From positions 1-41,222 of IMG/VR virus record IMGVR_UViG_3300048599_000905: a DNA stretch of 41,222 nt. One strand, given 5' to 3'. The notes under the pieces were generated by a model that was given only the letters and a program-made list of their open reading frames with translations, did not search any database and was not told the DNA's origin. Every line of letters starts with the position of its first letter. The first letter of the stretch is position 1. Shown in pieces: positions 5,350-29,192 of the stretch. Source of the DNA: a virus (Duplodnaviria > Caudoviricetes). The translations under genes and the position numbers were made by a program.

Positions 5350-6544
5350 GGATCGAAAGACTCAGGTCAATCACCGGCTGCGCCACGGCCGAGCTGGCGA
5401 AATCGGCCGGCGTGGCTTCGAGCTGCTCGAGCGTTTCCAGCAGCCGCGATCGCACCAGGCCGGTGGGGGGCGGATCGAGCACGGCCCGGCGCACCGCTTC
5501 CGCGTGGAAGGGATCGCGCAGGCTAGGCGTCAGGTCGATCAGCTCGCGCAGTTCGTCGCGGCCGAGCGTGTCGAGGATCACGCCGTACGTCGCGTTGCGC
5601 TGCCGCATCGCCGCGGCGGCTCGCGCGCCTTCGGTTTCCTCGCGCATCCGCTTCGCCCGCTCGACGGCCAGCTTCTCAGCCTCGGCCGCGGCGGTGGCCC
5701 GGCGCTTGGCGAGGATCTGCGGCGTGATCACTCCTGACGCCGGCCAGGATCCCATGCGTAGGAACCAGGCCACTGCGCCGGCTGGCTCGAGGAACTTCCC
5801 CGCGTTCGCCGGCAGATCGACCGTGGCCCAAGCCGCACGCATCCGCTCGCGGAATTGGGCCGGCGTCATTCCTGCCCGACGGCATTCGTCGGCGAGATCG
5901 CCCGCGATCGACTGCCTGGGTCGAAATTCTTCGACCACCACCCGCCAGTCATTTTCGGCGTCTGCCGGTGGTGGGCGGTTCTTGGGCGGTTCAATGGGCG
6001 GTTTGTGCGCCAGTACTGGCGGCTTGGTCGCGCCAGTACTGGCGGTTTGGTCGGTCGGTACTGGCGGTTTGGTCGTGTCTCGTCCGCCAGTGACCAACGC
6101 GCCAGTACTGGCGGTTTGGTCGCGCTGCAGGTCGAAGCCGTCTGCCTCCGTCGGTACCAGCAGTCGCAGCTCGTTCCAGATGATCCGGTACCGGTTCGTC
6201 GTGCCGCCGCGGCCTCCCTGGGGCTTGGGGCCGCGCCGTACGTAGATCAGGTTCATCCGTTCGAGCGCCGCGATCGCCCGCTGGACTTGGCGTTTCTTAA
6301 TCCCCGTCTCCGCCACGATCGTGTCCTGGCATGGCCAGCACTCGACGTTGCGGCCCAGGCGATCGCCGATGTTAAGCACGATCAGCTTGAGCTTGTCGGC
6401 GGAAACTTCGCCGCTCGCCGCGGGGATCACACACTTCCGCAAAATCATGAGTTGCTCCCCACGTCCCAACGTTTGCTGGTCGGGATCGGGCGGCGGCGGC
6501 TTCTTGCGTTGCCCGCCTCGCGCCTTACCTTGTTCGCCGGCCAT
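5327..6544 (-). CDS. phage replication initiator with N-terminal HTH (HTH_36-like)
   Basis: CWPCQDTIVAETGIKKRQVQRAIAALERMNLIYV...TNRYRI; internal iterons. Confidence 0.8.
   Translation of the reverse strand: MAGEQGKARGGQRKKPPPPDPDQQTLGRGEQLMILRKCVIPAASGEVSADKLKLIVLNIGDRLGRNVECWPCQDTIVAETGIKKRQVQRAIAALERMNLIYVRRGPKPQGGRGGTTNRYRIIWNELRLLVPTEADGFDLQRDQTASTGALVTGGRDTTKPPVPTDQTASTGATKPPVLAHKPPIEPPKNRPPPADAENDWRVVVEEFRPRQSIAGDLADECRRAGMTPAQFRERMRAAWATVDLPANAGKFLEPAGAVAWFLRMGSWPASGVITPQILAKRRATAAAEAEKLAVERAKRMREETEGARAAAAMRQRNATYGVILDTLGRDELRELIDLTPSLRDPFHAEAVRRAVLDPPPTGLVRSRLLETLEQLEATPADFASSAVAQPVIDLSLSIHGRRSQR
6007..6122. repeat. iteron array (probable origin) inside initiator gene
   Basis: Four copies of (cgcca)GTACTGGCGG(T/C)TTGGTCG; three contain the palindrome CGCCAGTACTGGCG (6008, 6031, 6100). 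Confidence 0.8.
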
Positions 6545-9739: not shown

Positions 9740-10021
9740 TTAGGCGACTTCGAGCGGCGGATGAGTCAGCTTGTCGCCGTCCCAGACTTCGTTCACGGCG
9801 ATCGCCGCGTTGGCGAACATCACCGCCTGCTGCAGGTTGGTGAGCGCCAGCGACTGCTCCCGGCTCGGGGGCGTCGTGTGGATGATCTTCACGGCGAGGG
9901 CATGGGCCTCGGCTCGCAGGCATTCGTATCGCGGAGCCTGGTCACCCTTCGGCGCGTGATACGTGAAGGTTTGATCGACCTGGTCGCGGACCTTGGTCGA
10001 GGGTTTATAAACGGTCGGCAT
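9740..10021 (-). CDS. Acb2/Tad1 hairpin-domain-like protein (putative signalling-nucleotide sponge)
   Basis: FTYHAPKGDQ..YE.LR......PPSREQSLALTNLQQAVMFANAAIA; AGGAAAGGA SD. Confidence 0.7.
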   Translation of the reverse strand: MPTVYKPSTKVRDQVDQTFTYHAPKGDQAPRYECLRAEAHALAVKIIHTTPPSREQSLALTNLQQAVMFANAAIAVNEVWDGDKLTHPPLEVA

Positions 10022-10367: not shown

Positions 10368-10408
10368 GCTGCTTTCCTTTCCCGGGAAATGATGTGTTAA
10401 AACTGCAA

Positions 10409-10482
10409 TTGGGGCGGCCGGATTTGAACCGGCGACCTCAGGGTTATGAGCCCCGCGAGCTGCCTGACTGCTCCACGCCCCG
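10409..10482 (-). tRNA. tRNA-Met(CAT), initiator (fMet) type
   Basis: CGGGGCG-TGGAGCAGTCAGGCAGCTC-GCGGGG-CTCATAA-CCCTG-AGGTC-GCCGG-TTCAAAT-CCGGC-CGCCCCA-A; C1:A72 mismatch and 3 G:C anticodon-stem pairs; no encoded CCA. Confidence 0.92.
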
Positions 10483-10833
10483 AGCGAAGGTGAGGACCGC
10501 CTCTTGTTCACTGTCCGGCGGTCCAGTCTCCGGTGTTGATCGTTTGGTTGTTCGTGCCTTGGCCACTCGGTCGATCGCATCGATCCGCCGCTGACATTCC
10601 GTCAAGAAAACTTCGGTGGCGGTCGAGAGTTGCCGCGGTGAGATCATGCCGGCCCGCGCATAGAGTCCGAGCCAACGCATGGCCATGATGTGCATGCCGG
10701 CGACGTAGCACATCTGATGAGCCCCAGTCCACTTCGCTGGCTCGTCCATCTCGGCCGCGAACTGGTCGAAGATGATGCGCGTGAGCGTGTCGAGTGACTC
10801 GGGCCCAGGGGGCAGGCGGTTAGTTTTGGCCAT
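10444..10833 (-). CDS. hypothetical protein (3' end runs into tRNA)
   Basis: AGGAG SD, overlaps upstream gene end; stop TAA lies in tRNA anticodon loop. Confidence 0.6.
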   Translation of the reverse strand: MAKTNRLPPGPESLDTLTRIIFDQFAAEMDEPAKWTGAHQMCYVAGMHIMAMRWLGLYARAGMISPRQLSTATEVFLTECQRRIDAIDRVAKARTTKRSTPETGPPDSEQEAVLTFARGVEQSGSSRGS

Positions 10834-12451: not shown

Positions 12452-13537
12452 TTAGTCGAAGAGTTTCAGTTGACGATCGTTCTCGTCCGGAGGCAGCTCG
12501 GGAATGATCGGCTGCGGCAACTTGTCGACGTAGGGAATCACGATCGAGCGGTGAGCATAGTACTCGTTCGTGACCAGCTTGGGTTCGTGCCCCAGATGCT
12601 TGGCCGCGATCTCCATCCCGTTCTTCTGGCTGCCGGCAGCGATTTTCACGAGCTCCGTAGCACACGACTTCCGCAGGCCGTGCCATCCGACTCCCAGGCC
12701 AAGCAGCCGCGTCAGGCCCGCCCGCTCGAAGATTTCTCGGCGGCAGCGATCGAGGAACGAATGCGAATAGTCCCAGGCCATAATCTTGGGATGATCGCAA
12801 CTGCAGAGTCTCGCGACGGCTGCAGCAGCATGGTCGTTCAGATAGACCATTCGTTCCTTGCCCGTCTTGCTCACTTCCTTGCGGACTCGGAGCCAGCGAC
12901 CGTACTTGTCCTCGAACAGGTCGGCTTGCAATACCTCGATCGCTTCGTCGATCCGCAGGGCCGAGTTGTAAACGAAGATCCACGCCGAATGCCACCAGTG
13001 CGGCGCGGCAATCTTCGGGGCGCGTCGTTTTCCGCGGTTCACTGAAAGAGCCTTTCCGGTTACGGGGTTGAGCCACTTGGCCAGCTTGGCAGCAGCCAGG
13101 AATGCTCCGCTCTCCTCGATCTCGACCCAGCCGTCGACCTCGCGCCGCTGCTTGGGTGGCGCCTTCAATCGGAGCGGGGCCGGAAGGATGCCCAGCGGGC
13201 ACAAATCGGTAGGGTCTTCGGGGTCGAACGAGCCATCGTTGGGCCCGAGGAGCTTCAGAAAGCGATTCGCGTGGCGGGCCAGCTTGTTCGCTTGGTTCTG
13301 CGACATGCGACCCGACTTCACCGCGTCGTCGAGCTCGCGGCGGAACTTGCGCGTGTGCTCCCAGGTCAGCGACTCGGCTGGTACGTAGGGGTTGACCCGA
13401 TCGAACAGCCGCAAGGCTTCCAGGTCGCAGTTCCGCGTTCCCGGCTGCCGCAGGTGCATCCAGTGGTGCTGGTACGTCTCCAAAAAGGTGGGCTTGTCGG
13501 GCGGGTTGAACAGGGCGAGCGAAGGTGCAGGACTCAT
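12452..13537 (-). CDS. tyrosine recombinase (Xer/Cre-like, no obvious arm-binding domain)
   Basis: Catalytic set: LRIDE (R), SKTGK (K), HGLR, LGH, YY. Confidence 0.92.
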   Translation of the reverse strand: MSPAPSLALFNPPDKPTFLETYQHHWMHLRQPGTRNCDLEALRLFDRVNPYVPAESLTWEHTRKFRRELDDAVKSGRMSQNQANKLARHANRFLKLLGPNDGSFDPEDPTDLCPLGILPAPLRLKAPPKQRREVDGWVEIEESGAFLAAAKLAKWLNPVTGKALSVNRGKRRAPKIAAPHWWHSAWIFVYNSALRIDEAIEVLQADLFEDKYGRWLRVRKEVSKTGKERMVYLNDHAAAAVARLCSCDHPKIMAWDYSHSFLDRCRREIFERAGLTRLLGLGVGWHGLRKSCATELVKIAAGSQKNGMEIAAKHLGHEPKLVTNEYYAHRSIVIPYVDKLPQPIIPELPPDENDRQLKLFD

Positions 13538-14478: not shown

Positions 14479-14536
14479 CGCAGCACCTCTCGATTCGTTA
14501 GCGATACTCGAACAGGGCACACGGATCTTCAAACAG

Positions 14537-14610
14537 TAGCGGGGAGCGGACTTGAACCGCCGACACACGGCTTATGAAGCCGTTGCTCTAACCAACTGAG
14601 CTACCCCGCC
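14537..14610 (-). tRNA. tRNA with CAT anticodon, elongator Met-like; probable attachment site
   Basis: GGCGGGG-TAGCTCAGTTGGTTAGAGC-AACGGC-TTCATAA-GCCGT-GTGTC-GGCGG-TTCAAGT-CCGCT-CCCCGCT-A; no CCA. Confidence 0.92.
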
Positions 14611-14781: not shown

Positions 14782-16047
14782 ATGGGTAAGTCTAGCAATC
14801 CGCCCGAATCTGGGCAACTGCCCGCGCCCGCCGCGCCGGTTGTAAAAAAGCGGAAGTCTACAACCGAGAAGCCTCCCAAGCCCTACGACGAATACCCTCT
14901 GACCGCCCACGCCGTCGGGCAGTGGTGCCGGAAGATTCGGGGGAAGGTGGAATACTTCGGCCCCTGGGGCAAGCGAATACACGGGAAGCTGGTCCGGATC
15001 GAGGGGGACGGCTGGAAGGAAGCGCTGGACCGCTACAAAGAGCAGGCCGACGACCTCTACGCCGGCCGGAAGCCCCGGGAGAAGTCTGAGGGGCTGACCG
15101 TGGCCGACGCCTGCAACGCCTTCCTGATCGCCAAAGACATCCTGAGGGCCAAGGGGGCGATCACGCAGCGGACGCGCGACGAGTACAAGGAAACGACTGA
15201 CCGCATCATCGCGACCTTTGGGAAGAATCGCCGCGTCGACGACCTGGCGGCTGACGATTTCAACCAGCTGCTGATGGCCATTCCCAAGACCTGGGGGCCG
15301 TGGCGCCAGACCGGCGAGATTCAGCGCGTGCGGACCGTGTTCAAGCATTGCTATGACTCCCACCTCCTGGAACAGCCGGTCCGGTTTGGGCCTCTGTTCA
15401 AAAAGCCGAGCAAGAAGACGATGCGCGTTCACCGCGCCGGCCGCGGCTCGCGCATGATCGATGCCGCCACGTTGCGGCTGCTGGTCGAGAAAGCCAAGCC
15501 GCAGTTGAAGGCCATGATCCTGCTGGCGCTGAATTGCGGATTTGGCAACGATGACTGCGCGAGCCTACCGCTTTCGATCGTCCATGGTGACTGGCTCGAG
15601 TTCCCGCGGCCGAAAACCGGGATCGCGCGCAAGTGCCCACTCTGGCCGGAAACGATGGCCGCCCTCAAAGCTGTGATTGCCGAGAGGAAACCGCCCAAGG
15701 ATCCGGCACACGCCGACCTCGTCTTCATCACGAAGTACGGCGGGGCCTGGGCGGGCAAGTCGAGTGGCAACCCAATCACTGCCGAGTTTCGCAAACTGGC
15801 CAACGAGCTGGAGGTGTACCGCCAAGGGGTGAGCTTCTACTCGCTCCGTCATGTGTTCCGCACCGTGGCCGATAGCACGCTCGATATTCCAGCAACCAGG
15901 CTCATCATGGGCCACGTCGATGGCTCAATCGACGACACCTACCGCGAACACGTTGACGACGCGCGGCTGCGGGCGGTTGCCGAGCACGTGCGCAAGTGGC
16001 TGTTTCCGCCGACCAGGAAAACAGTAAAGTCATCAGTGAAATCGTAG
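14782..16047 (+). CDS. tyrosine integrase with N-terminal arm-binding domain
   Basis: W..KIRGKVEYFG N-domain; LNCGFGNDD, RPKTG, YSLRH, MGH, TY; next to tRNA. Confidence 0.92.
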   Translation: MGKSSNPPESGQLPAPAAPVVKKRKSTTEKPPKPYDEYPLTAHAVGQWCRKIRGKVEYFGPWGKRIHGKLVRIEGDGWKEALDRYKEQADDLYAGRKPREKSEGLTVADACNAFLIAKDILRAKGAITQRTRDEYKETTDRIIATFGKNRRVDDLAADDFNQLLMAIPKTWGPWRQTGEIQRVRTVFKHCYDSHLLEQPVRFGPLFKKPSKKTMRVHRAGRGSRMIDAATLRLLVEKAKPQLKAMILLALNCGFGNDDCASLPLSIVHGDWLEFPRPKTGIARKCPLWPETMAALKAVIAERKPPKDPAHADLVFITKYGGAWAGKSSGNPITAEFRKLANELEVYRQGVSFYSLRHVFRTVADSTLDIPATRLIMGHVDGSIDDTYREHVDDARLRAVAEHVRKWLFPPTRKTVKSSVKS

Positions 16048-18729: not shown

Positions 18730-19642
18730 CCATTTCGCCCACCGATTTTGCCGCGTTCTGCACAAGTCGTGCGCGGCACAAGATATCGGCCGTGATGCCT
18801 GCTACCTACTTACCGTGATCGCGCACACGGAAGATGCTGCGCGGTATTCCGGAGCTGTCAGGTACTGGAACACTCAGCTTGAGCAGACGATGGGCTTCAC
18901 GTCTCCAAAGCAGCTGAACAATGCCCGACGAGTCGCCATGGAAGCTGGTTGGCTGGTGTACGAACGGGAGCATGATCGGGGAGTCGGTCACTATTTCGTG
19001 ACCATCCCAGCACGATATTTGTCGCTTTCCGACAGCCCAATTGAGGGGGAAGAAACCACTGTTTCCCTTTCCCCTGGGGGAAATGATGTTGCCAACTTCA
19101 CTTCCCCAGACGGAAAGGAAAGCGGAAAGGGAACGTCAAATTCAGCCATTTCCCTTTCCCCTGGGGGAATGGATTGCGGAAAGGATTGCGGAAAGGAAAG
19201 CGGAAAGCCTTCTATCCCTATCCCTATACCTAATACTTATTGCAACGAGCCGGCCAAGCCGGCGTCGTCGCCGACCTCCGATCCGAAGTTATCGAAGGCG
19301 AAGAAACCGAAGCGAGATTTGGAGTCGATCGAGTTTCCAAATTTCCCGGTTGTCGGTACCGGTGATCCGTTGTGGGTGCTCACCGAAAAGTACATCGGCG
19401 AACTTTCCGACCTCTACCCCGGCGTCGATGTTCGTCTTCAAGCCCGTGCTGCTCTGCGCTGGTGCAAGAACAACCCGACCAAGATCAAAACGCTTGAGGG
19501 CATGCCCAGGTTTATCAACGCCTGGATGAGGCGCGAACAGGACCGATGTTGCACGCGAGGTGCAAACTCGCCGCCACCGATTCACCAGCCGCGAGAAATC
19601 ACTAGGCCCATCAAGCGGCCATCCTCACTCACTCACACTTAG
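18695..19642 (+). CDS. putative phage replication initiator
   Basis: N-terminal wHTH-like domain, iteron-encoded linker, C-terminal domain ending PRFINAW; directly upstream of dnaB; GGAAAGG SD before ATG 18695. Confidence 0.75.
   Translation: MPHVRAYPKRDSHFAHRFCRVLHKSCAAQDIGRDACYLLTVIAHTEDAARYSGAVRYWNTQLEQTMGFTSPKQLNNARRVAMEAGWLVYEREHDRGVGHYFVTIPARYLSLSDSPIEGEETTVSLSPGGNDVANFTSPDGKESGKGTSNSAISLSPGGMDCGKDCGKESGKPSIPIPIPNTYCNEPAKPASSPTSDPKLSKAKKPKRDLESIEFPNFPVVGTGDPLWVLTEKYIGELSDLYPGVDVRLQARAALRWCKNNPTKIKTLEGMPRFINAWMRREQDRCCTRGANSPPPIHQPREITRPIKRPSSLTHT
19062..19208. repeat. iteron cluster (probable origin) in initiator gene
   Basis: TTTCCCTTTCCCCTGGGGGAA x2 and CGGAAAG x5. Confidence 0.75.
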
Positions 19643-20974: not shown

Positions 20975-21241
20975 ATGGATCCGAAGGGAACATTCCGACT
21001 GCTCCTGCGAGCCCAACCACATCACAGGGACGAGAGCGGGGCGCTACGGATGAGGCACTTGCTCAAGGTGCTGCTCAGGCAGTTTGGGTTCAGGTGCCTG
21101 CGTTTCGAGGCCCTGACGCCCGAAGATCGCCGGCTGGCCGGTGATGCCCCGAAAACCAGTCCAGAAGGTGCTGGGAGCCCGCCAAAAGGTACTCCTGAGG
21201 GGGGCGAAGCCCGAGATTGTTTACCGCCAGCGAGCGGCTAA
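20975..21241 (+). CDS. hypothetical protein
   Basis: AGGA SD; LRMRHLLKVLLRQFGFRC. Confidence 0.6.
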   Translation: MDPKGTFRLLLRAQPHHRDESGALRMRHLLKVLLRQFGFRCLRFEALTPEDRRLAGDAPKTSPEGAGSPPKGTPEGGEARDCLPPASG

Positions 21242-21333
21242 TAGACAGAGTCCGTCGATTGCCAGCGACTGCGTAACACAACCTGCCTTTGGACTTTATG
21301 ACAAAGTCATAAACCTGAACGAATCGTGACCGA

Positions 21334-21552
21334 ATGAACGACAAACCAACCAAACGCGTGAAGTGGAATCTGCGGCCGGGCCGAACAACCTCGCTGCACT
21401 TGCCCAGCGGTGGGTCAATCACGTTCCACGCGGTCGACGGCGCTTTCGACCAGTTGGCCGCCGACGTGCCCCAAGATGCCGTAGTCACACACCGGACCGC
21501 GACGAAGGAAGCCAATGCCGAAGAAGTCCAGCACCAAGCAGCGAACCCCTAG
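21334..21552 (+). CDS. hypothetical protein, weakly CsrA-like
   Basis: Beta-rich pattern LRPGRT...GGSITFHAVDG...LAADVPQDAVVTHR. Confidence 0.5.
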   Translation: MNDKPTKRVKWNLRPGRTTSLHLPSGGSITFHAVDGAFDQLAADVPQDAVVTHRTATKEANAEEVQHQAANP

Positions 21553-21730
21553 ACCCCCGCGGCCGGAGATCCTCGATCGACTGCCAACCGATCCGACCCC
21601 CAGGGAAATCCGACATTACTGCGAGCAAATTCAGAAGACTTGGACGGCCAGCGAACTCAGGAAACGCTTGGGGCGAACGCAGAAATTGCCCAAGCCTGAC
21701 TCGCTAATTGGGTTGAGTGTGAACGAGTAA
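21515..21730 (+). CDS. hypothetical protein
   Basis: AAGGA SD; DPTPREIRHYCEQIQKTWT. Confidence 0.6.
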   Translation: MPKKSSTKQRTPRPPRPEILDRLPTDPTPREIRHYCEQIQKTWTASELRKRLGRTQKLPKPDSLIGLSVNE

Positions 21731-21817
21731 TGCGGCCAGTATATTGACAACAGACGATTTTGCGGATGAGAATCAAGCCGTTATTGGTACCCTTAGATCC
21801 TCACACCGAGATGAATC

Positions 21818-22180
21818 ATGCCAGCGGGAATTGTTCGCGTTGAAGGCTTGGGAAAAGGCACAAGCGAAGTATCGGGCCATATTCTAACCGGTGGCGACAA
21901 CCCACCATTTATCACCCTCAACTCGAACTCTGGTTACCCTCGTGTCCGAGACATTTATGCACGAGCCACAAAGGTAGACTCTGGCACCGGCGGTCGGCTC
22001 AAAGTGGTTGCGTTCCATATTCGCTTTGAATCAACTATTTCCAATTCGGCTCGCGCAATTGCGTTCAATGTTTTCCAAGAAGATGCGCACGAATTCACTT
22101 ATCCCTTCATAGCGGGCAAGAAGTCTGACGCTACGAAGAAGCCAGCCAAAAAGGCCGCAAAGTCAGCGAAGCCGCAGTAA
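21818..22180 (+). CDS. moron-like hypothetical protein
   Basis: Lower GC, upstream TTGACA-18-GAGAAT (21744-21773), Lys/Ala-rich tail. Confidence 0.6.
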   Translation: MPAGIVRVEGLGKGTSEVSGHILTGGDNPPFITLNSNSGYPRVRDIYARATKVDSGTGGRLKVVAFHIRFESTISNSARAIAFNVFQEDAHEFTYPFIAGKKSDATKKPAKKAAKSAKPQ

Positions 22181-22209: not shown

Positions 22210-22238
22210 TTGACTAATCCCTGCTGATTTCCTAAGAT
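22210..22238 (+). promoter_or_regulatory. sigma70 promoter
   Basis: TTGACT-17-TAAGAT. Confidence 0.75.
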
Positions 22239-22244
22239 CGAAGC

Positions 22245-22680
22245 AGGTGCGAGTAATCGCCCTCCCGTGGCTCGTGTATGCGTCTGCGGGTTATTTGCAA
22301 GCCCCGCTCTGCTGCTCGTGTATGCGTCAGCACAGCGAAACGATAAGCGTTTCGTCGTGCATTCTTTTCGAGCCAATCCCGTTCATTGCTGTGCAGGCCA
22401 GTTGCTTCGGCAATTGGTTGCGAGTGCGGGCCACTCGCGTGCGCGGCGTAGCCAGGTCAGTTACGCATCACGCTCTGGCGACTGTCAGGCGTGATCTGAC
22501 TTGGCACTTCCTGCGACCCGTTCGGCGCCATCGGACACCCGAAGCGCCGGCGGGCTCGCGGGCTATTTCTCGCCATCGTTGAAAGAAGCGGCCGGCCGAC
22601 AGTGAATCAGACTGCCGACCGACCTTGACCGACAACGGAGTAAGCCGTTGCCGACCCACGAAAACGTAGGTCAGGCAACA
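22245..22680 (+). ncRNA. large structured RNA / leader upstream of packaging operon
   Basis: About 10 helices, GNRA and C(UUCG)G tetraloops, many G.U pairs on the plus strand, two identical 13-nt loops. Confidence 0.75.
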
Positions 22681-22720
22681 TGCCACGCAACCCAAAACAC
22701 CACCGGCACGACCGGCACAA

Positions 22721-23395
22721 ATGCTACCAGCCCGCCGAAATACGATCCTTGCCGCGGACGTCGCACCCGAGGCCGACTTGGTCGACTTCGCGTCGCCGGC
22801 AGTACATCGTCGCCAACTCTCTGCCAATCGGCGCGAAGTGCGGGATATGCGGCGGACCAAAACGGCTGCCGAAGCGATCGGGCCGATTACCCGCGACGTC
22901 GAAATCTACGGGTTTACGAAGGGCCAATTCAGCATCATCGACATCCTGCATCACTGCCTCGACATCATCGGGCCTAGTGCTCACTTGCAGATCAGCACGT
23001 GGACCGCGGCGAACGCGGATATCTCCACCGTGCTCGAACTCTGCAACTGCGGCAAGGTGGCCAGCGCGCGATGGCTGGTCGACCTCACCTTCAATCGTCG
23101 ATCGCCAGAGCTCGCCCAACGGATCCGCGACGTCTTCGGGGACGATGCGATCCGAGTGGCGAAGAACCACGCGAAGTTCGTTTTGTTGTCGGTCGCCGAC
23201 TGGCGGCTTGTTGTTCGGACGTCGATGAATCTGAACTTCAACCCGCGCTTCGAGAACTTCCAACTTGCCCACGATCCGGAACTCTGGAGCTTTCACGACG
23301 CAATCTTGAGCGAGATTTGGAACCGTCAGAAGCGCAGCGACCAGGACTTGCTGCGACCCTATGACTTGCACCGACAGTTTGACGCCGACTTGTGA
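22721..23395 (+). CDS. phospholipase D-like (HKD nuclease-fold) protein
   Basis: KNHAKFVLL...VVRTSMNLN.NPRFE = single HxK...SxN motif. Confidence 0.7.
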   Translation: MLPARRNTILAADVAPEADLVDFASPAVHRRQLSANRREVRDMRRTKTAAEAIGPITRDVEIYGFTKGQFSIIDILHHCLDIIGPSAHLQISTWTAANADISTVLELCNCGKVASARWLVDLTFNRRSPELAQRIRDVFGDDAIRVAKNHAKFVLLSVADWRLVVRTSMNLNFNPRFENFQLAHDPELWSFHDAILSEIWNRQKRSDQDLLRPYDLHRQFDADL

Positions 23396-23747
23396 CGAAC
23401 CAGGCGGCATTCCCCCCGTTGATGAAGTGGTTGGCTGGCTCATCGAGGGACACCGAGACGCGGACATCCGCGGCGCAATCAAGGAGAAATGGCCAGAACT
23501 CGACGCAGTGACTCTGCAGAACGCGGCAGTCGAACACTTCCGCCGGGCAGCGAACTGCGAACCAGCTGTGATCGTCGGCTTCGCCCTTGAGGCGTACCGC
23601 GATCTATACCGCCGCATGATGAAGATTGGCGACTTCGCGGGGGCGACGAAAGCGGTCAAAGAGTTGGTCGCACTGACCAACCATGTTCAGCGCATCCGGA
23701 CAGGCAACCCCGGAAGGTCAACCGACTCGCCCGAACAAGAAGGTTGA
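23361..23747 (+). CDS. putative terminase small subunit
   Basis: Small helical protein directly before terL; start uncertain (GTG ~23392 possible). Confidence 0.5.
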   Translation: MTCTDSLTPTCDEPGGIPPVDEVVGWLIEGHRDADIRGAIKEKWPELDAVTLQNAAVEHFRRAANCEPAVIVGFALEAYRDLYRRMMKIGDFAGATKAVKELVALTNHVQRIRTGNPGRSTDSPEQEG

Positions 23748-25809
23748 CACGGGGAACAACGCGAAGCGGGCAAAGCGGAAGAACGACCGAATTGTCGTGA
23801 TCCCGCCCTGCGTTGATCGCGCGCGACGCCAGCAGCTCGAACAGAATGATATCGCTTGGCTCATGCACTACTTCGCGGAAGAGACCGGCGAAGTCGGTCG
23901 CTACACGTACGAGTTCACCGGGCAGCAACTCGAAATGGCTGCGGCGATCGCCCGGGCCATCGAGAATGGCGACGACCAGGCAATTGCTGCCAGCCGCGGC
24001 GAGGGCAAATCGACACTGGCCTGGCGACTCACGCTGAAGTACGTCCTGCAGGGAAGAATCAAGTTCCCTGTTCTGTTCGCTGCGACCGGCGCGGCAGCGG
24101 CCAACATGCTCGAAGAGATCAAGCTTGAGCTCGAAAACAACCCGAGGTTTCACGAGGACTATCCCGAGGTTGTCTTTCCGATCCTGGCTTTGGAGGGTGT
24201 CCCGCAGCGCGCGGGTACCATGCTCGCCAGCGGTCGCCGCCTGGACAATGACGAGATCTTCGAAGAAGTGATGATTCGCTTCAGCTGGTGCGGACAGCAG
24301 GTCTACTTGCCTGACATGCCCGGTTCGCCCTCGCGCGGTGCCATCTTTGCTACCCGGGGCCTGGATGCCGAAGTCCGTGGGCTCCGTATCAAGGGCCGCC
24401 GCGTCGACCTGGCCCTGATCGACGATCCCGATACCGAAGAAACCGCCCGCAGCGAAGAGCAGGCCGAAAAGCTCGAGAAGCGAATTGATCGAGCCATTGC
24501 CGGTCTGGGGGGCCAGAAGAAAACCGTTGCCCGGATCATGCTGACCACGATCCAGTCGACGATCAGCGTTTCCGCCAAATTCACGGATCCCCAGCAGAAG
24601 CACAGCTGGAAGGGGAAGCGGATGCGAATGCTGGTTGAGCCGCCGGCGGATCTTGATGCCTGGCAGAACTTCATCACCCTTTGGCAGCAAGATCAGATCG
24701 AAGGGACGACGAAGGCCCATGACCTCTATGCCGCCAACCGCCAGCGGATGGATGAAGGGGCCATCATCTCGAACCCCCACCGGCATACGGAAAAGCAGCT
24801 CAGCGCGCTGGAGCACTACTACACCCTCGTTGCTCGCTATGGCCAGGAAGCGGTCGACACCGAGTACAACAACGATCCGCCGAAGCCCGCGGAGACCGTC
24901 GACATCGGCATTACGCCACATCGCATTCAGCACCAGATCAGCGGGTTCGCGCGCCTGATCATTCCGCCCGGCTGCACCGTTCTCACGCAAGGTATCGACT
25001 GCAAGAAGCAATCCTTGCACTGGGTGGTGCGAGTTTGGAAGCCGGACGGGACCGGGTACACCATCGCCCACGGTATTCACGAGGTAATTGGCACGAAGTA
25101 CGGCGTCGAGGATGGCGTCGAAGAAGCCATTCGCCGGGCCGTAATCGAGCACATGGAAGTATTTCGCAACATGGAGTTCCGTTCGCCCGACGGCGAGATC
25201 CCGATCGACCCCGCCAATTGGCTCACTCTGATCGATACCAGGTACCAGGGCGATGCCGTTAAAAGTGCCTGCGTCGAGATCGGCAGCAGCATCATGCCCG
25301 TGATGGGTTTCGGCGTTTCCAAGGGCTGCGTCAAAGGTCGGCAGTTTCACCCCGCGCGAGAGGCGACAGCCGAGGTGAAGCCTGGCGATCACTACAACCT
25401 GCGCCTGACCAAGATGGGCAAGTCCAAGCTGTGGATGGTCGAGGCCGACACTGACCACTGGAAACGCTGGGAGCATGCCCGCTGGATGACGGGACCCGAC
25501 AAGCCCGGGCGCTTGCACGTGTTCGGGGAATCCGAGGAACACGGCTATCGGCCCCGCGGCCGGCAAAACCAGGATCCGAACTTCCAGTACGCCCACCACC
25601 TTTGCAACGAGAAGGAGGTGGACGAACCGTACAAGGGCCAAATGCGGCGAGTCTGGAAAGCCCGCGCTGAGAACGTTCACTGGCTCGATTCCAGCTACTA
25701 CAGCGACGTCGCCGCTTGTATCCGCGGCATTACGATTTTCAAACCCATAGAACTGGCCAGGCCGGCCGTTCGGAAACCTCGTGTAAGAGTGCAGAACCTT
25801 AATGTCTAA
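23683..25809 (+). CDS. terminase large subunit (gpA-like)
   Basis: Walker A ASRGEGKST, Walker B LALIDD, nuclease GIDC...ID..Y...HWLD. Confidence 0.9.
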   Translation: MFSASGQATPEGQPTRPNKKVDTGNNAKRAKRKNDRIVVIPPCVDRARRQQLEQNDIAWLMHYFAEETGEVGRYTYEFTGQQLEMAAAIARAIENGDDQAIAASRGEGKSTLAWRLTLKYVLQGRIKFPVLFAATGAAAANMLEEIKLELENNPRFHEDYPEVVFPILALEGVPQRAGTMLASGRRLDNDEIFEEVMIRFSWCGQQVYLPDMPGSPSRGAIFATRGLDAEVRGLRIKGRRVDLALIDDPDTEETARSEEQAEKLEKRIDRAIAGLGGQKKTVARIMLTTIQSTISVSAKFTDPQQKHSWKGKRMRMLVEPPADLDAWQNFITLWQQDQIEGTTKAHDLYAANRQRMDEGAIISNPHRHTEKQLSALEHYYTLVARYGQEAVDTEYNNDPPKPAETVDIGITPHRIQHQISGFARLIIPPGCTVLTQGIDCKKQSLHWVVRVWKPDGTGYTIAHGIHEVIGTKYGVEDGVEEAIRRAVIEHMEVFRNMEFRSPDGEIPIDPANWLTLIDTRYQGDAVKSACVEIGSSIMPVMGFGVSKGCVKGRQFHPAREATAEVKPGDHYNLRLTKMGKSKLWMVEADTDHWKRWEHARWMTGPDKPGRLHVFGESEEHGYRPRGRQNQDPNFQYAHHLCNEKEVDEPYKGQMRRVWKARAENVHWLDSSYYSDVAACIRGITIFKPIELARPAVRKPRVRVQNLNV

Positions 25810-27795: not shown

Positions 27796-29192
27796 GCAAG
27801 TCTTGCTTTCGCAACACCGATGCTTCGTCGCGGGGCTCGCTGGTCGAGAACAAAGCCAAGCCGTCGCGCTTCGACGCCGCGGCAATCAAGAACGGCCGTC
27901 TGCAGGTGCCGCGCTCGGCGCTGCGATTTGCGGCCGCCGTGGAATTCGCCAGCGAACCCAGCGAAACGGAAGGCGTCATTCCGGTATCGATCACGGCCCG
28001 CAGCGGGAACGCCCTGCAACACTTTTGGTTCGGCAAGTGCATTCACGACCTGGCTGGCATGCGGCCGGCGTCGGCGAAGTTGCCATTCGACTACTGCCAC
28101 GATGATCGGGAAGTTCTCGGCTTCTCGGATCAGCAGGAAGTCGCCGCCGAAGGGTTGGTAATGCACGGAGTCCTGATTCCCCACAAGGAACAGGACCGCG
28201 TCGACGAAGTTGCTACCAAAGCCGCCGCCGGTTTCGAGTGGCAGGCCTCGATTTACTTTGACCTCGACACGCTCATTCTCGAATTCGTGCCCGAGGGTGA
28301 ATCGGTTGAAGTCAACGGCCAGGCCTTCGAGGGTCCGGGCGTGATCTTCCGCGAGTGGATGCTTCGCGGTGCTGCGATTTGCCCGTATGGCTATGACCCG
28401 GCCACGTCCGTTCAGTTTTCCAACAACCCTGGCGACGTTGTCGCCGTTTCATTCACGGAGAAGTCAGCGATGGCAACCAAGCCCAAGCCGAAACCGACCG
28501 CATTGAACAAGCCCGCCCCCAACCGTCACGCCCGCCGCCAGACTGCCGCGCTGTCGCGGACCGGTGCCGCGAACCCGAAAAACCGCTTGGCAAAGCCCAA
28601 GCCGACATCGCAACGGCCGCCGGCTGCGGGGCGAATGGCCGCCGGCTCTGAAGAGGAGGAAGAGGAGGGGCTCGAAAGCGATCCCGAAGAGCTCGAATCG
28701 GATGAGGATGCCGACCCTGACGCGGCGACCGAAACCGAGGAAGAACGGGATTGTGACTGCCCCGAAGGCGAAGAGTGCAACTGCGACGAGGAAGCCGAAA
28801 CGGATCCCGATGCCGAAGATCCCGTCGAAATGGAGGCCGAGGAAGAAGGCGACAAGCCCAAGCAATCGGCCAAGCTCTCGCAGCGGCAGCAGTTGCAGCG
28901 GTACATCAATGCGTTTGGAGCAGCCCGCGGTGCCAAGTGGTTCGCCGCCGGCCTCACGTTCGCTCAAGCCCAGTCGAAGTTCACCGCGGTGCTGACCAAG
29001 CAGAACGGCGAGCTTCGCAAGAAAGTGGGCGAACTGACCGCGCAAGTCACCGCTCTGGGTGGCGAGGAAGAACCCGTCACTTTCACCTCGACAGACGAGC
29101 GGCCGAAGCCGACCGGTAAGCCTAGCAAGCTCGCAGTGAACTTGCCTGCTGGAGCCGCCAAGTTCGCCGCAAGTCTCAAACTTCCGAAGTAG
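27792..29192 (+). CDS. prohead protease with C-terminal scaffold
   Basis: DYCHD, WQASI, AICPYGYD protease motifs; acidic disordered region plus coiled-coil C-terminus. Confidence 0.8.
   Translation: MSKSCFRNTDASSRGSLVENKAKPSRFDAAAIKNGRLQVPRSALRFAAAVEFASEPSETEGVIPVSITARSGNALQHFWFGKCIHDLAGMRPASAKLPFDYCHDDREVLGFSDQQEVAAEGLVMHGVLIPHKEQDRVDEVATKAAAGFEWQASIYFDLDTLILEFVPEGESVEVNGQAFEGPGVIFREWMLRGAAICPYGYDPATSVQFSNNPGDVVAVSFTEKSAMATKPKPKPTALNKPAPNRHARRQTAALSRTGAANPKNRLAKPKPTSQRPPAAGRMAAGSEEEEEEGLESDPEELESDEDADPDAATETEEERDCDCPEGEECNCDEEAETDPDAEDPVEMEAEEEGDKPKQSAKLSQRQQLQRYINAFGAARGAKWFAAGLTFAQAQSKFTAVLTKQNGELRKKVGELTAQVTALGGEEEPVTFTSTDERPKPTGKPSKLAVNLPAGAAKFAASLKLPK

Follow-up and report, generated by a model that had tools for sequence, protein, structure and literature searches.

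What lies between the consensus promoter at position 22210 and the packaging genes that begin at 22721 of this provirus, and does it work as RNA? The window, by which we mean the whole stretch of 41,222 nt that was analysed, derives from a provirus record that is 63% complete. Rightward from 14782 it carries genes for an integrase, an HTH_17 protein, a likely replication protein and DnaB, small ORFs, and then a PLD/NucT-like nuclease (22721–23395, +; phrog_16945, with relatives annotated NucT-like), the first gene of the packaging operon. This is followed by a likely terminase small subunit (terS; 23361–23747, +), which has no family match and is so called for its position, behind the PLD gene as in many relatives; by a GpA-type large subunit (terL; 23683–25809, +; PF20454, phrog_38); and by a lambda-type portal and capsid and tail genes. 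Planctomycete phages and actinobacterial phages alike have this nuclease between terS and a cos-like site, and it is gene 1 in those Gordonia phages whose genome ends are defined; in BetterKatz (NC_031247) it spans 139–792. Other phages have HNH genes next to cos, and the nuclease probably takes the role of the HNH packaging cofactor. Because the closest named relatives of the PLD gene belong to Planctomycetota, the host is likely a planctomycete.

Two tRNA-Met genes on the minus strand (10408–10483 and 14536–14610) and two divergent tyrosine integrases (12452–13537, −; 14782–16047, +) indicate that the record is likely made of two adjacent integrated elements joined together. The left-hand one contains a true CsrA gene (265–468, −; PF02599, 76.9 bits), and an anti-defence protein with the Acb2/Tad1 hairpin domain is encoded at 9740–10021 (−; E 1.7e-15). 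Close direct repeats of 15–25 nt, iteron-like in character, occur at 6007–6122 and 19062–19207, inside both likely replication-initiator genes.

The first-pass annotation described a single structured plus-strand RNA of about 450 nt, whereas we find two elements on opposite strands: module A (+), a non-coding element of ~325 nt at ~22245–22570, and module B (−), to which the last ~115 nt belong. The promoter assigned to the RNA does exist: a sigma70-like TTGACT-17-TAAGAT lies at 22210–22238 (+), one of eight in the 41 kb with both strands counted, and from its consensus transcription would start near 22245. Promoter-like sites were found in 14 of 68 regions upstream of PLD relatives, against 9.7 expected, an enrichment that is not clear. 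The 5′ hairpin with a GUAA (GNRA) loop (22245–22263, +) appears in some predicted folds but is displaced in that of 22245–22575. Downstream the fold is far more definite, as the annotation had it: a three-way junction with a C(UUCG)G arm (22388–22447, +), a long hairpin with a 6-nt bulge at 22461–22466 (22451–22505, +; z −6.8) and the paired part (22513–22559) of a long irregular hairpin have nearly all their pair probabilities at 0.8–1.0. The last of these (22510–22570, +; −38.5 kcal/mol) carries a U-rich tail and is the likely 3′ end, with a terminator score of −30 (rank 59 of 320).

Folding z-scores were −6.1 for 22386–22508 and −4.8 for 22509–22565, and 22240–22720 as one piece reached −4.4, a value equalled by none of 100 shuffles. 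When both strands were scanned as far as 40620 (678 windows, each of 120 nt), six of the 18 lowest z-scores fell within 22261–22740, and among 48 upstream regions compared, that of module A was the most structured on the plus strand (z −5.8, the next being −3.7). The lowest z-score of the scan, −8.0, belongs to 28921–29040 (+), near the end of the protease gene and upstream of the capsid gene. The G·U pairs once taken to fix the plus strand throughout do favour it over 22243–22566 (16 in the plus-strand folds, 2 in the minus-strand folds), but not beyond 22575. By coding score none of the ORFs in the region resembles a gene (−0.24 to −0.40, where control genes have 0.07–0.36), ARAGORN reported nothing in 22210–22720, and no Rfam family reached its gathering score, the four hits with E up to 10 being chance ones. 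Thus the central proposal of an undescribed, structured, non-coding plus-strand element behind a promoter is supported by the strong fold, the non-coding ORFs and the blank Rfam search, and module A is a real, apparently undescribed structured element, shorter than first claimed. A near-identical sequence covers 22371–22598 (228 nt) in run X1, with two differences, of which one breaks a pair in the UUCG arm and the other is unpaired (a single contig, depth 5.6). It is not independent support, since it may be related to the source sample. A contig of X1 departs from the window sequence at 22556 with a 90-nt loose end. A search for RNA sequencing runs that contain the stretch gave none.

The stems beyond 22575, formerly drawn as plus-strand structure, fold better on the other strand: over 22575–22690 the z-score is −7.3 on the minus strand against −2.7 on the plus, with seven G·U pairs against none. 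Module B (22578–22690, −) is a separate element of three hairpins (22671–22654, 22653–22630 and a terminator-like 22624–22590), and it is conserved in one relative, L068, with 78% identity over 69 nt. That relative comes from a set of 112 loci with PLD relatives (22 + 14 + 76), many of them redundant, which yield 68 distinct upstream regions of at least 100 nt. The L068 homolog also folds preferentially on the minus strand (z −6.6 versus −2.9), and all 14 pairs of the terminator-like stem are kept, four with changes on both sides and two with a change on one side, in a comparison of two sequences registered by hand on their conserved flanks; automatic alignment misregistered this stem and left only two pairs of this kind among 26. 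The homolog itself lies at 2790–2905 (−) of L068, where its terminator score is better, at 0.4. By eye alone, the minus strand may have an extended −10 site at the PLD start (22729–22721). Patterns and HMMs found no module B beyond L068, and a covariance model of it (R3) returned three weak matches, all generic hairpins, from 151 genomes. Where the PLD gene begins, module B, the older of the two elements, probably either terminates antisense transcription or gives rise to it.

Comparison with L068 also shows where module A sits. A cos-like packaging site is predicted at 21184–21260 (+), outside the RNA, by a two-element weight matrix built from 13 PLD relatives; its top site in the window, at 21188, scores 14.0 bits (next 7.7) and aligns with the L068 site. 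Leave-one-out testing ranked the true site first in 13 of 13 cases, on training sites picked by our own pattern, a subset beyond which the matrix does not reach. The label “cos” is a prediction from position and from likeness to an element at the lambda right end, which we take to be cosQ. As a candidate cos, 22503–22560 was rejected, since 22503 scores −2.6 bits and a profile HMM from the 13 relatives is blank there. In L068 the order is cos, about 100 nt, module B and PLD, whereas the window has ~1.3 kb extra between cos and module B. This insert, with the cos-like site as its left border, holds ORFs 21334 and 21515, a predicted sigma70-like promoter with 10 of 12 matches (21744–21773, +) for ORF 21818, that ORF, the second promoter and module A. 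ORF 21818 (21818–22180, +) encodes 120 aa, has a low GC3 (0.50) and looks like cargo; searches for relatives gave only its self-match and none in IMG/VR. With the cos-like site at 21188, 1 kb upstream, module A lies inside an insert that has no counterpart in L068, and so is neither a cos site nor a fixed partner of the PLD gene. Since L068 keeps the cos-like site and module B without module A, the operon can work without it.

A fixed link of the RNA to the PLD protein and terminase, as the first-pass annotation had suggested, accordingly fails among the relatives compared: none of the 68 distinct upstream regions contains a comparable twin-loop element or a model match. These loci are at most about 60% identical in their PLD proteins, so absence there says little about close kin, and proteins 68–88% identical to PLD do exist (P0002–P0007). 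Wider searches were likewise blank. In IMG/VR the twin repeat gave no match as a pattern, the single 15-mer gave 24, none of which extends or is twinned, and a relaxed twin pattern gave seven, all unrelated repeats; relatives sought there via terL, ORF 21818 and the portal numbered zero, zero and one locus, the last without a PLD match. Blastn found no module A homolog in phage and plasmid collections, and in 401 Planctomycetota genomes only two short matches, the twin-loop one in unrelated sequence. Single-sequence covariance models, which are weak for distant homologs, were empty or at chance on 93–95 loci (R1, R2); on 151 genomes each, R1 had no match and R2 six weak ones with broken pairs, and R2 found no module A homolog in 34 related records. 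A twin repeat in another locus (L062) was set aside, lying inside a small ORF with a fold not above chance. Among 301 planctomycete genomes the exact loop occurs as 16 single copies in 14 of them, similar to a control, and these chance copies have 0–1 flanking pairs, against 7 and 5 here. One exact 13-nt loop copy, in shared context and without a flanking stem, belongs to a repeated element at four loci (L204, L205, L217 and L218) of two planctomycete genomes (G468 and G681). No description of module A was found in the literature searched, and the twin loop does not occur in six supplement files of PMC10690425, a 10,000-candidate catalogue. As no homolog was found, there is no covariation between genomes, and the case rests on one.

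Two hairpins on different stems had been seen to present an identical loop, and the exact 15-nt direct repeat (at 22270 and 22314) with its differing flanking stems is indeed there, although the hairpins are not the equilibrium fold. P1 (22264–22290, +) has a 7-bp stem and its loop at 22271–22283; P2 (22305–22337, +) has 5 bp, with 4 bp more past a 1×1 mismatch, and the identical loop at 22315–22327. No other repeat in the window has both copies closed as hairpin loops, an arrangement that arises by chance 0.03 times per shuffled window for repeats of at least 9 nt and in none of 30 shuffles for at least 13 nt. Between P1 and P2 the loop is unchanged, while three of the five loop-proximal pairs differ yet stay paired, two of them with both sides changed; identical loops combined with compensatory stem differences point to selection on a hairpin that presents that loop. 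Elsewhere in the window a loop copy with at most two mismatches occurs only at 25778–25790 (+), just upstream of the ATG at 25802, where about one such match is expected by chance (an estimate).

The compensated stems also bear on whether an RNA switch exists at all. Downstream of the promoter the two repeat copies, spaced by 44 bp, could be DNA operators, with the hairpins as terminators or decayed palindromes. In favour of this are the degenerate palindrome in the loop core and a spacing close to four turns of the helix; the other close repeats of 15–25 nt in the window, which lie in replication genes, resemble DNA iterons, and 22245–22335 on its own folds like its shuffles (z 0.14). The operator reading seems unlikely to us, for the stems that enclose the two copies show compensatory differences, the G·U pairs favour one strand by 16 to 2, and the region has GNRA and UUCG loops and a z of about −6 over 180 nt.

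In the 22245–22575 transcript the stems of the twin hairpins have a probability of only 0.02–0.03. Folding at growing lengths, by which we mean an equilibrium fold at each length and not a kinetic simulation, gave another view: at nascent lengths of 22338–22350 P1 (0.85–0.97) and P2 (0.94–0.99) are the dominant folds. By 22362, when hairpin T is complete at 22330–22360, the probability of P2 has fallen to 0.00, because the 3′ strand of P2 (22330–22337) is the 5′ arm of T. Hairpin T (22330–22368, +; −15.7 kcal/mol), mutually exclusive with P2, runs into AUUCUUUU, with 6 U in 8 nt, and is terminator-like but weak: its terminator score of −31 ranks 71st of 320, and a standard terminator scan of the window does not list it. 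Since no more than three sites anywhere in the window reach a positive value, this scoring may be ill suited to the host. U-rich tails like that of T also follow P1 (rank 69) and the 22510 hairpin (rank 59), and U-rich linkers may therefore merely separate the domains of one RNA. Beyond 22375 a long-range helix removes P1 too, as CGAGCCA (22369–22375, +) pairs with 22268–22274 at a probability of 0.98–1.0. The complementarity of CGAGCC (22369–22374) to the 5′ side of the twin loop, remarked on first pass, thus holds for the first repeat (0.98), but makes a long-range helix that removes P1 and no kiss.

We tentatively favour, as possible rather than probable, a protein-sensing dual-hairpin attenuator leader that gates read-through towards the PLD-terminase operon. 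The leader would be transcribed from 22245–22570 behind the promoter and by default may terminate near 22368, leaving an RNA of ~124 nt. A dimeric protein, for which ORF 21334 and ORF 21515 are the nearest candidates, would grip both identical-loop hairpins; bound P2 would then keep the overlapping, weak terminator-like T from forming, and transcription could run on towards the nuclease and terminase genes. After read-through, pairing of 22369–22375 with P1 would free the ligand and fix the RNA in its long form. An attenuation switch before the packaging genes had been suggested on the model of P4 CI/P1 C4; the idea gains support by another route, in that P2 excludes T, and not by the antisense one. 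The attenuator reading draws together the promoter consensus, the twin repeat, the compensated stems, the exclusivity of P2 and T, the U-rich tract, the non-coding character and the position between the cos-like site and the packaging operon, all of which are present in the window. Against it stand the weakness of T as a terminator, the lack of module A in L068 and of any homolog, the unclear enrichment of promoter-like sites upstream of PLD relatives, and the broken UUCG-arm pair in X1; no ANTAR match turned up in the record, and the CsrA likeness of ORF 21334 is marginal. Moreover, the fold is strongest 3′ of T, in sequence for which a simple attenuator has no use.

That last point favours a close rival, nearly as likely as the attenuator although itself doubtful: a stand-alone cargo RNA of the lysogen, of ~124 or ~325 nt, which ends before module B, exerts no control over the packaging genes and uses its twin loops to titrate a dimeric protein in trans, for instance as a CsrB/RsmZ-like sponge, or which serves as an RNA antitoxin for the orphan ORF 21818. 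It would account for the ~1.3-kb insert absent from L068, with its two consensus promoters and orphan low-GC3 ORF, and for the most stable domains lying 3′ of T, where an end hairpin with a U-rich tail faces the module B terminator. Repeated identical loops on different stems are the layout of a sponge, a true CsrA is encoded in the record at 265–468, and CsrA was present in 41 of 41 planctomycete genomes searched. The loops, however, have no GGA, the twin hairpins are disfavoured in the finished RNA (0.02–0.03), and, in contrast to type III antitoxin arrays, the repeats come after the orphan ORF and take up only 18 nt of a period of 44 nt.

The attenuator reading calls for a ligand, and the insert offers two candidates. 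ORF 21334 (21334–21552, +), the first gene after cos, encodes a 72-aa, all-beta orphan protein with coding-like codon use, for which no relative was found. Its strand pattern is CsrA-like by eye, and its Atlas model has TM scores of 0.63 and 0.60 to CsrA-bearing clusters, below the bar for naming (feature score 0.77). Against a profile of 32 CsrA sequences it scored 1.2 bits, with 53 of 2000 shuffles as good; the hhalign probability for CsrA was 0.05%, Pfam PF02599 gave no match, and two PDB searches with a low-confidence single-sequence monomer (pLDDT 65, pTM 0.36) returned no CsrA (best Z 5.0). As a CsrA-like ligand ORF 21334 is therefore a marginal lead only. ORF 21515 (21515–21730, +), the second candidate, would by its translation be a basic protein of 71 aa with an Arg/Pro-rich N-terminus, and it matched no significant family. 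An ANTAR domain (PF03861) was not matched in the record, which is 63% complete. The fuller proposal, in which ORF 21334 is a CsrA-fold antiterminator that binds two identical loops lacking GGA and so permits expression of the packaging operon, with the conserved antisense module B acting against it, strikes us as improbable; if true, it would be a new RNA-level late-gene switch in planctomycete phages.

Other readings depend on a partner for the loop. The annotation had proposed that the loop kisses ACGCATCACG, but this duplex (−12.6 kcal/mol) is at chance, the mean best of shuffled loops being −12.9, and only six of the partner bases (22460–22475) lie inside the bulge. A better partner at 22435–22447 pairs over 11 nt (−16.7 kcal/mol; as good in 23 of 500 shuffled loops and 5 of 500 random segments) but is buried in a stem of probability 0.99. 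A switch like P4 CI/P1 C4, in which a processed piece (the bulged hairpin or 3′ domain) pairs with the nascent twin loops and forces termination, would suit a layout with repeated targets upstream of a structured domain and could use this 11-nt pairing; with the bulge partner at chance, the better partner buried and no C4-type match in Rfam, we hold it to be quite unlikely. Less probable still is a multimerising or prohead RNA, a phi29 pRNA-like or ROOL/GOLLD-like cage built through loop-bulge or loop-loop kissing. Its appeal is that the element adjoins packaging genes and has long irregular helices, and that wobble pairs would let two copies of the loop anneal (−10.6 kcal/mol); kissing loops are also how some large prophage RNAs assemble into multimers (PMC12286853). 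Such self-pairing was matched by 107 of 1000 shuffles, however, the kissing partner is at chance, relatives with the same PLD/terS cassette have no such RNA, Rfam gave no match, and the terminase is of GpA type, not phi29 type, beside a lambda-type portal. None of the kissing, pRNA-like or CI/C4-like readings has positive support. Three further sites in the window to which the loop might bind in antisense (21956, 18659 and 15456) were also rejected, the best of the 15-mer being matched by 15 of 60 shuffles; the best target of the 20-nt P1 arm (1 of 60 shuffles) is the non-coding strand of the integrase gene.

If the attenuator reading is true, module A would add to the dual-hairpin antitermination elements one that has a new loop sequence and works through some protein partner, in a phage group, likely of Planctomycetota hosts, whose gene control is little studied; the cargo reading would make it a new prophage non-coding RNA. 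Under either it is a single case so far, which limits its weight.

Known systems resemble module A in different parts. P4 CI/P1 C4 RNA combines, as module A would, a phage leader, repeated motifs and premature termination, but module A has no Rfam match and no significant exposed complementary partner. The lambda pR′-tR′ leader and HK022 put offer the parallel of a consensus promoter and a short terminated RNA with the late genes behind, and put has two hairpins; here, in contrast, the promoter lies between the cos-like site and the packaging genes, and both loops have one sequence. Lambda Q acts through DNA at the promoter, and HK022 put needs no protein. Like the CsrB/RsmZ sponges, the locus has repeated identical loops on unlike stems and a terminator-like end, would give an RNA of about 120 nt, and has CsrA in the record, but its loops contain no GGA, number only two and have no Csr/Rsm match in Rfam. 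ROOL, GOLLD and OLE are likewise large structured RNAs, in prophage (PMC12286853); at ~325 nt module A is smaller, is known from one genome, and has neither an Rfam match nor pseudoknots supported by covariation. The RAT of BglG/LicT is, according to PMC12591593, a protein-stabilised stem-loop that partly overlaps a terminator, as P2 may be, but is a single hairpin of ~30 nt, and the ORFs scanned here encode no CAT/PRD protein. Closest are the leaders read by the ANTAR proteins EutV, AmiR and NasR, in which, according to PMC3369931, a dimer binds two stem-loops, the second overlapping a terminator, with hexanucleotide loops that begin with A and have G as their fourth base. In place of such hexaloops, module A has identical loops of 13 nt (4 nt if an inner stem of 3 bp is counted), its linker is 14 nt with the extended P2 (22291–22304) or ~20 nt with the core stem, against 5–12 in that account, and it stands before a phage packaging operon, with a large structured 3′ domain following and no ANTAR match in the record. 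What it has in common with the leaders so described is their predicted arrangement: two tandem stem-loops with a shared loop, near the 5′ end of an operon transcript, the second of which overlaps the 5′ arm of T, a weak terminator-like hairpin.
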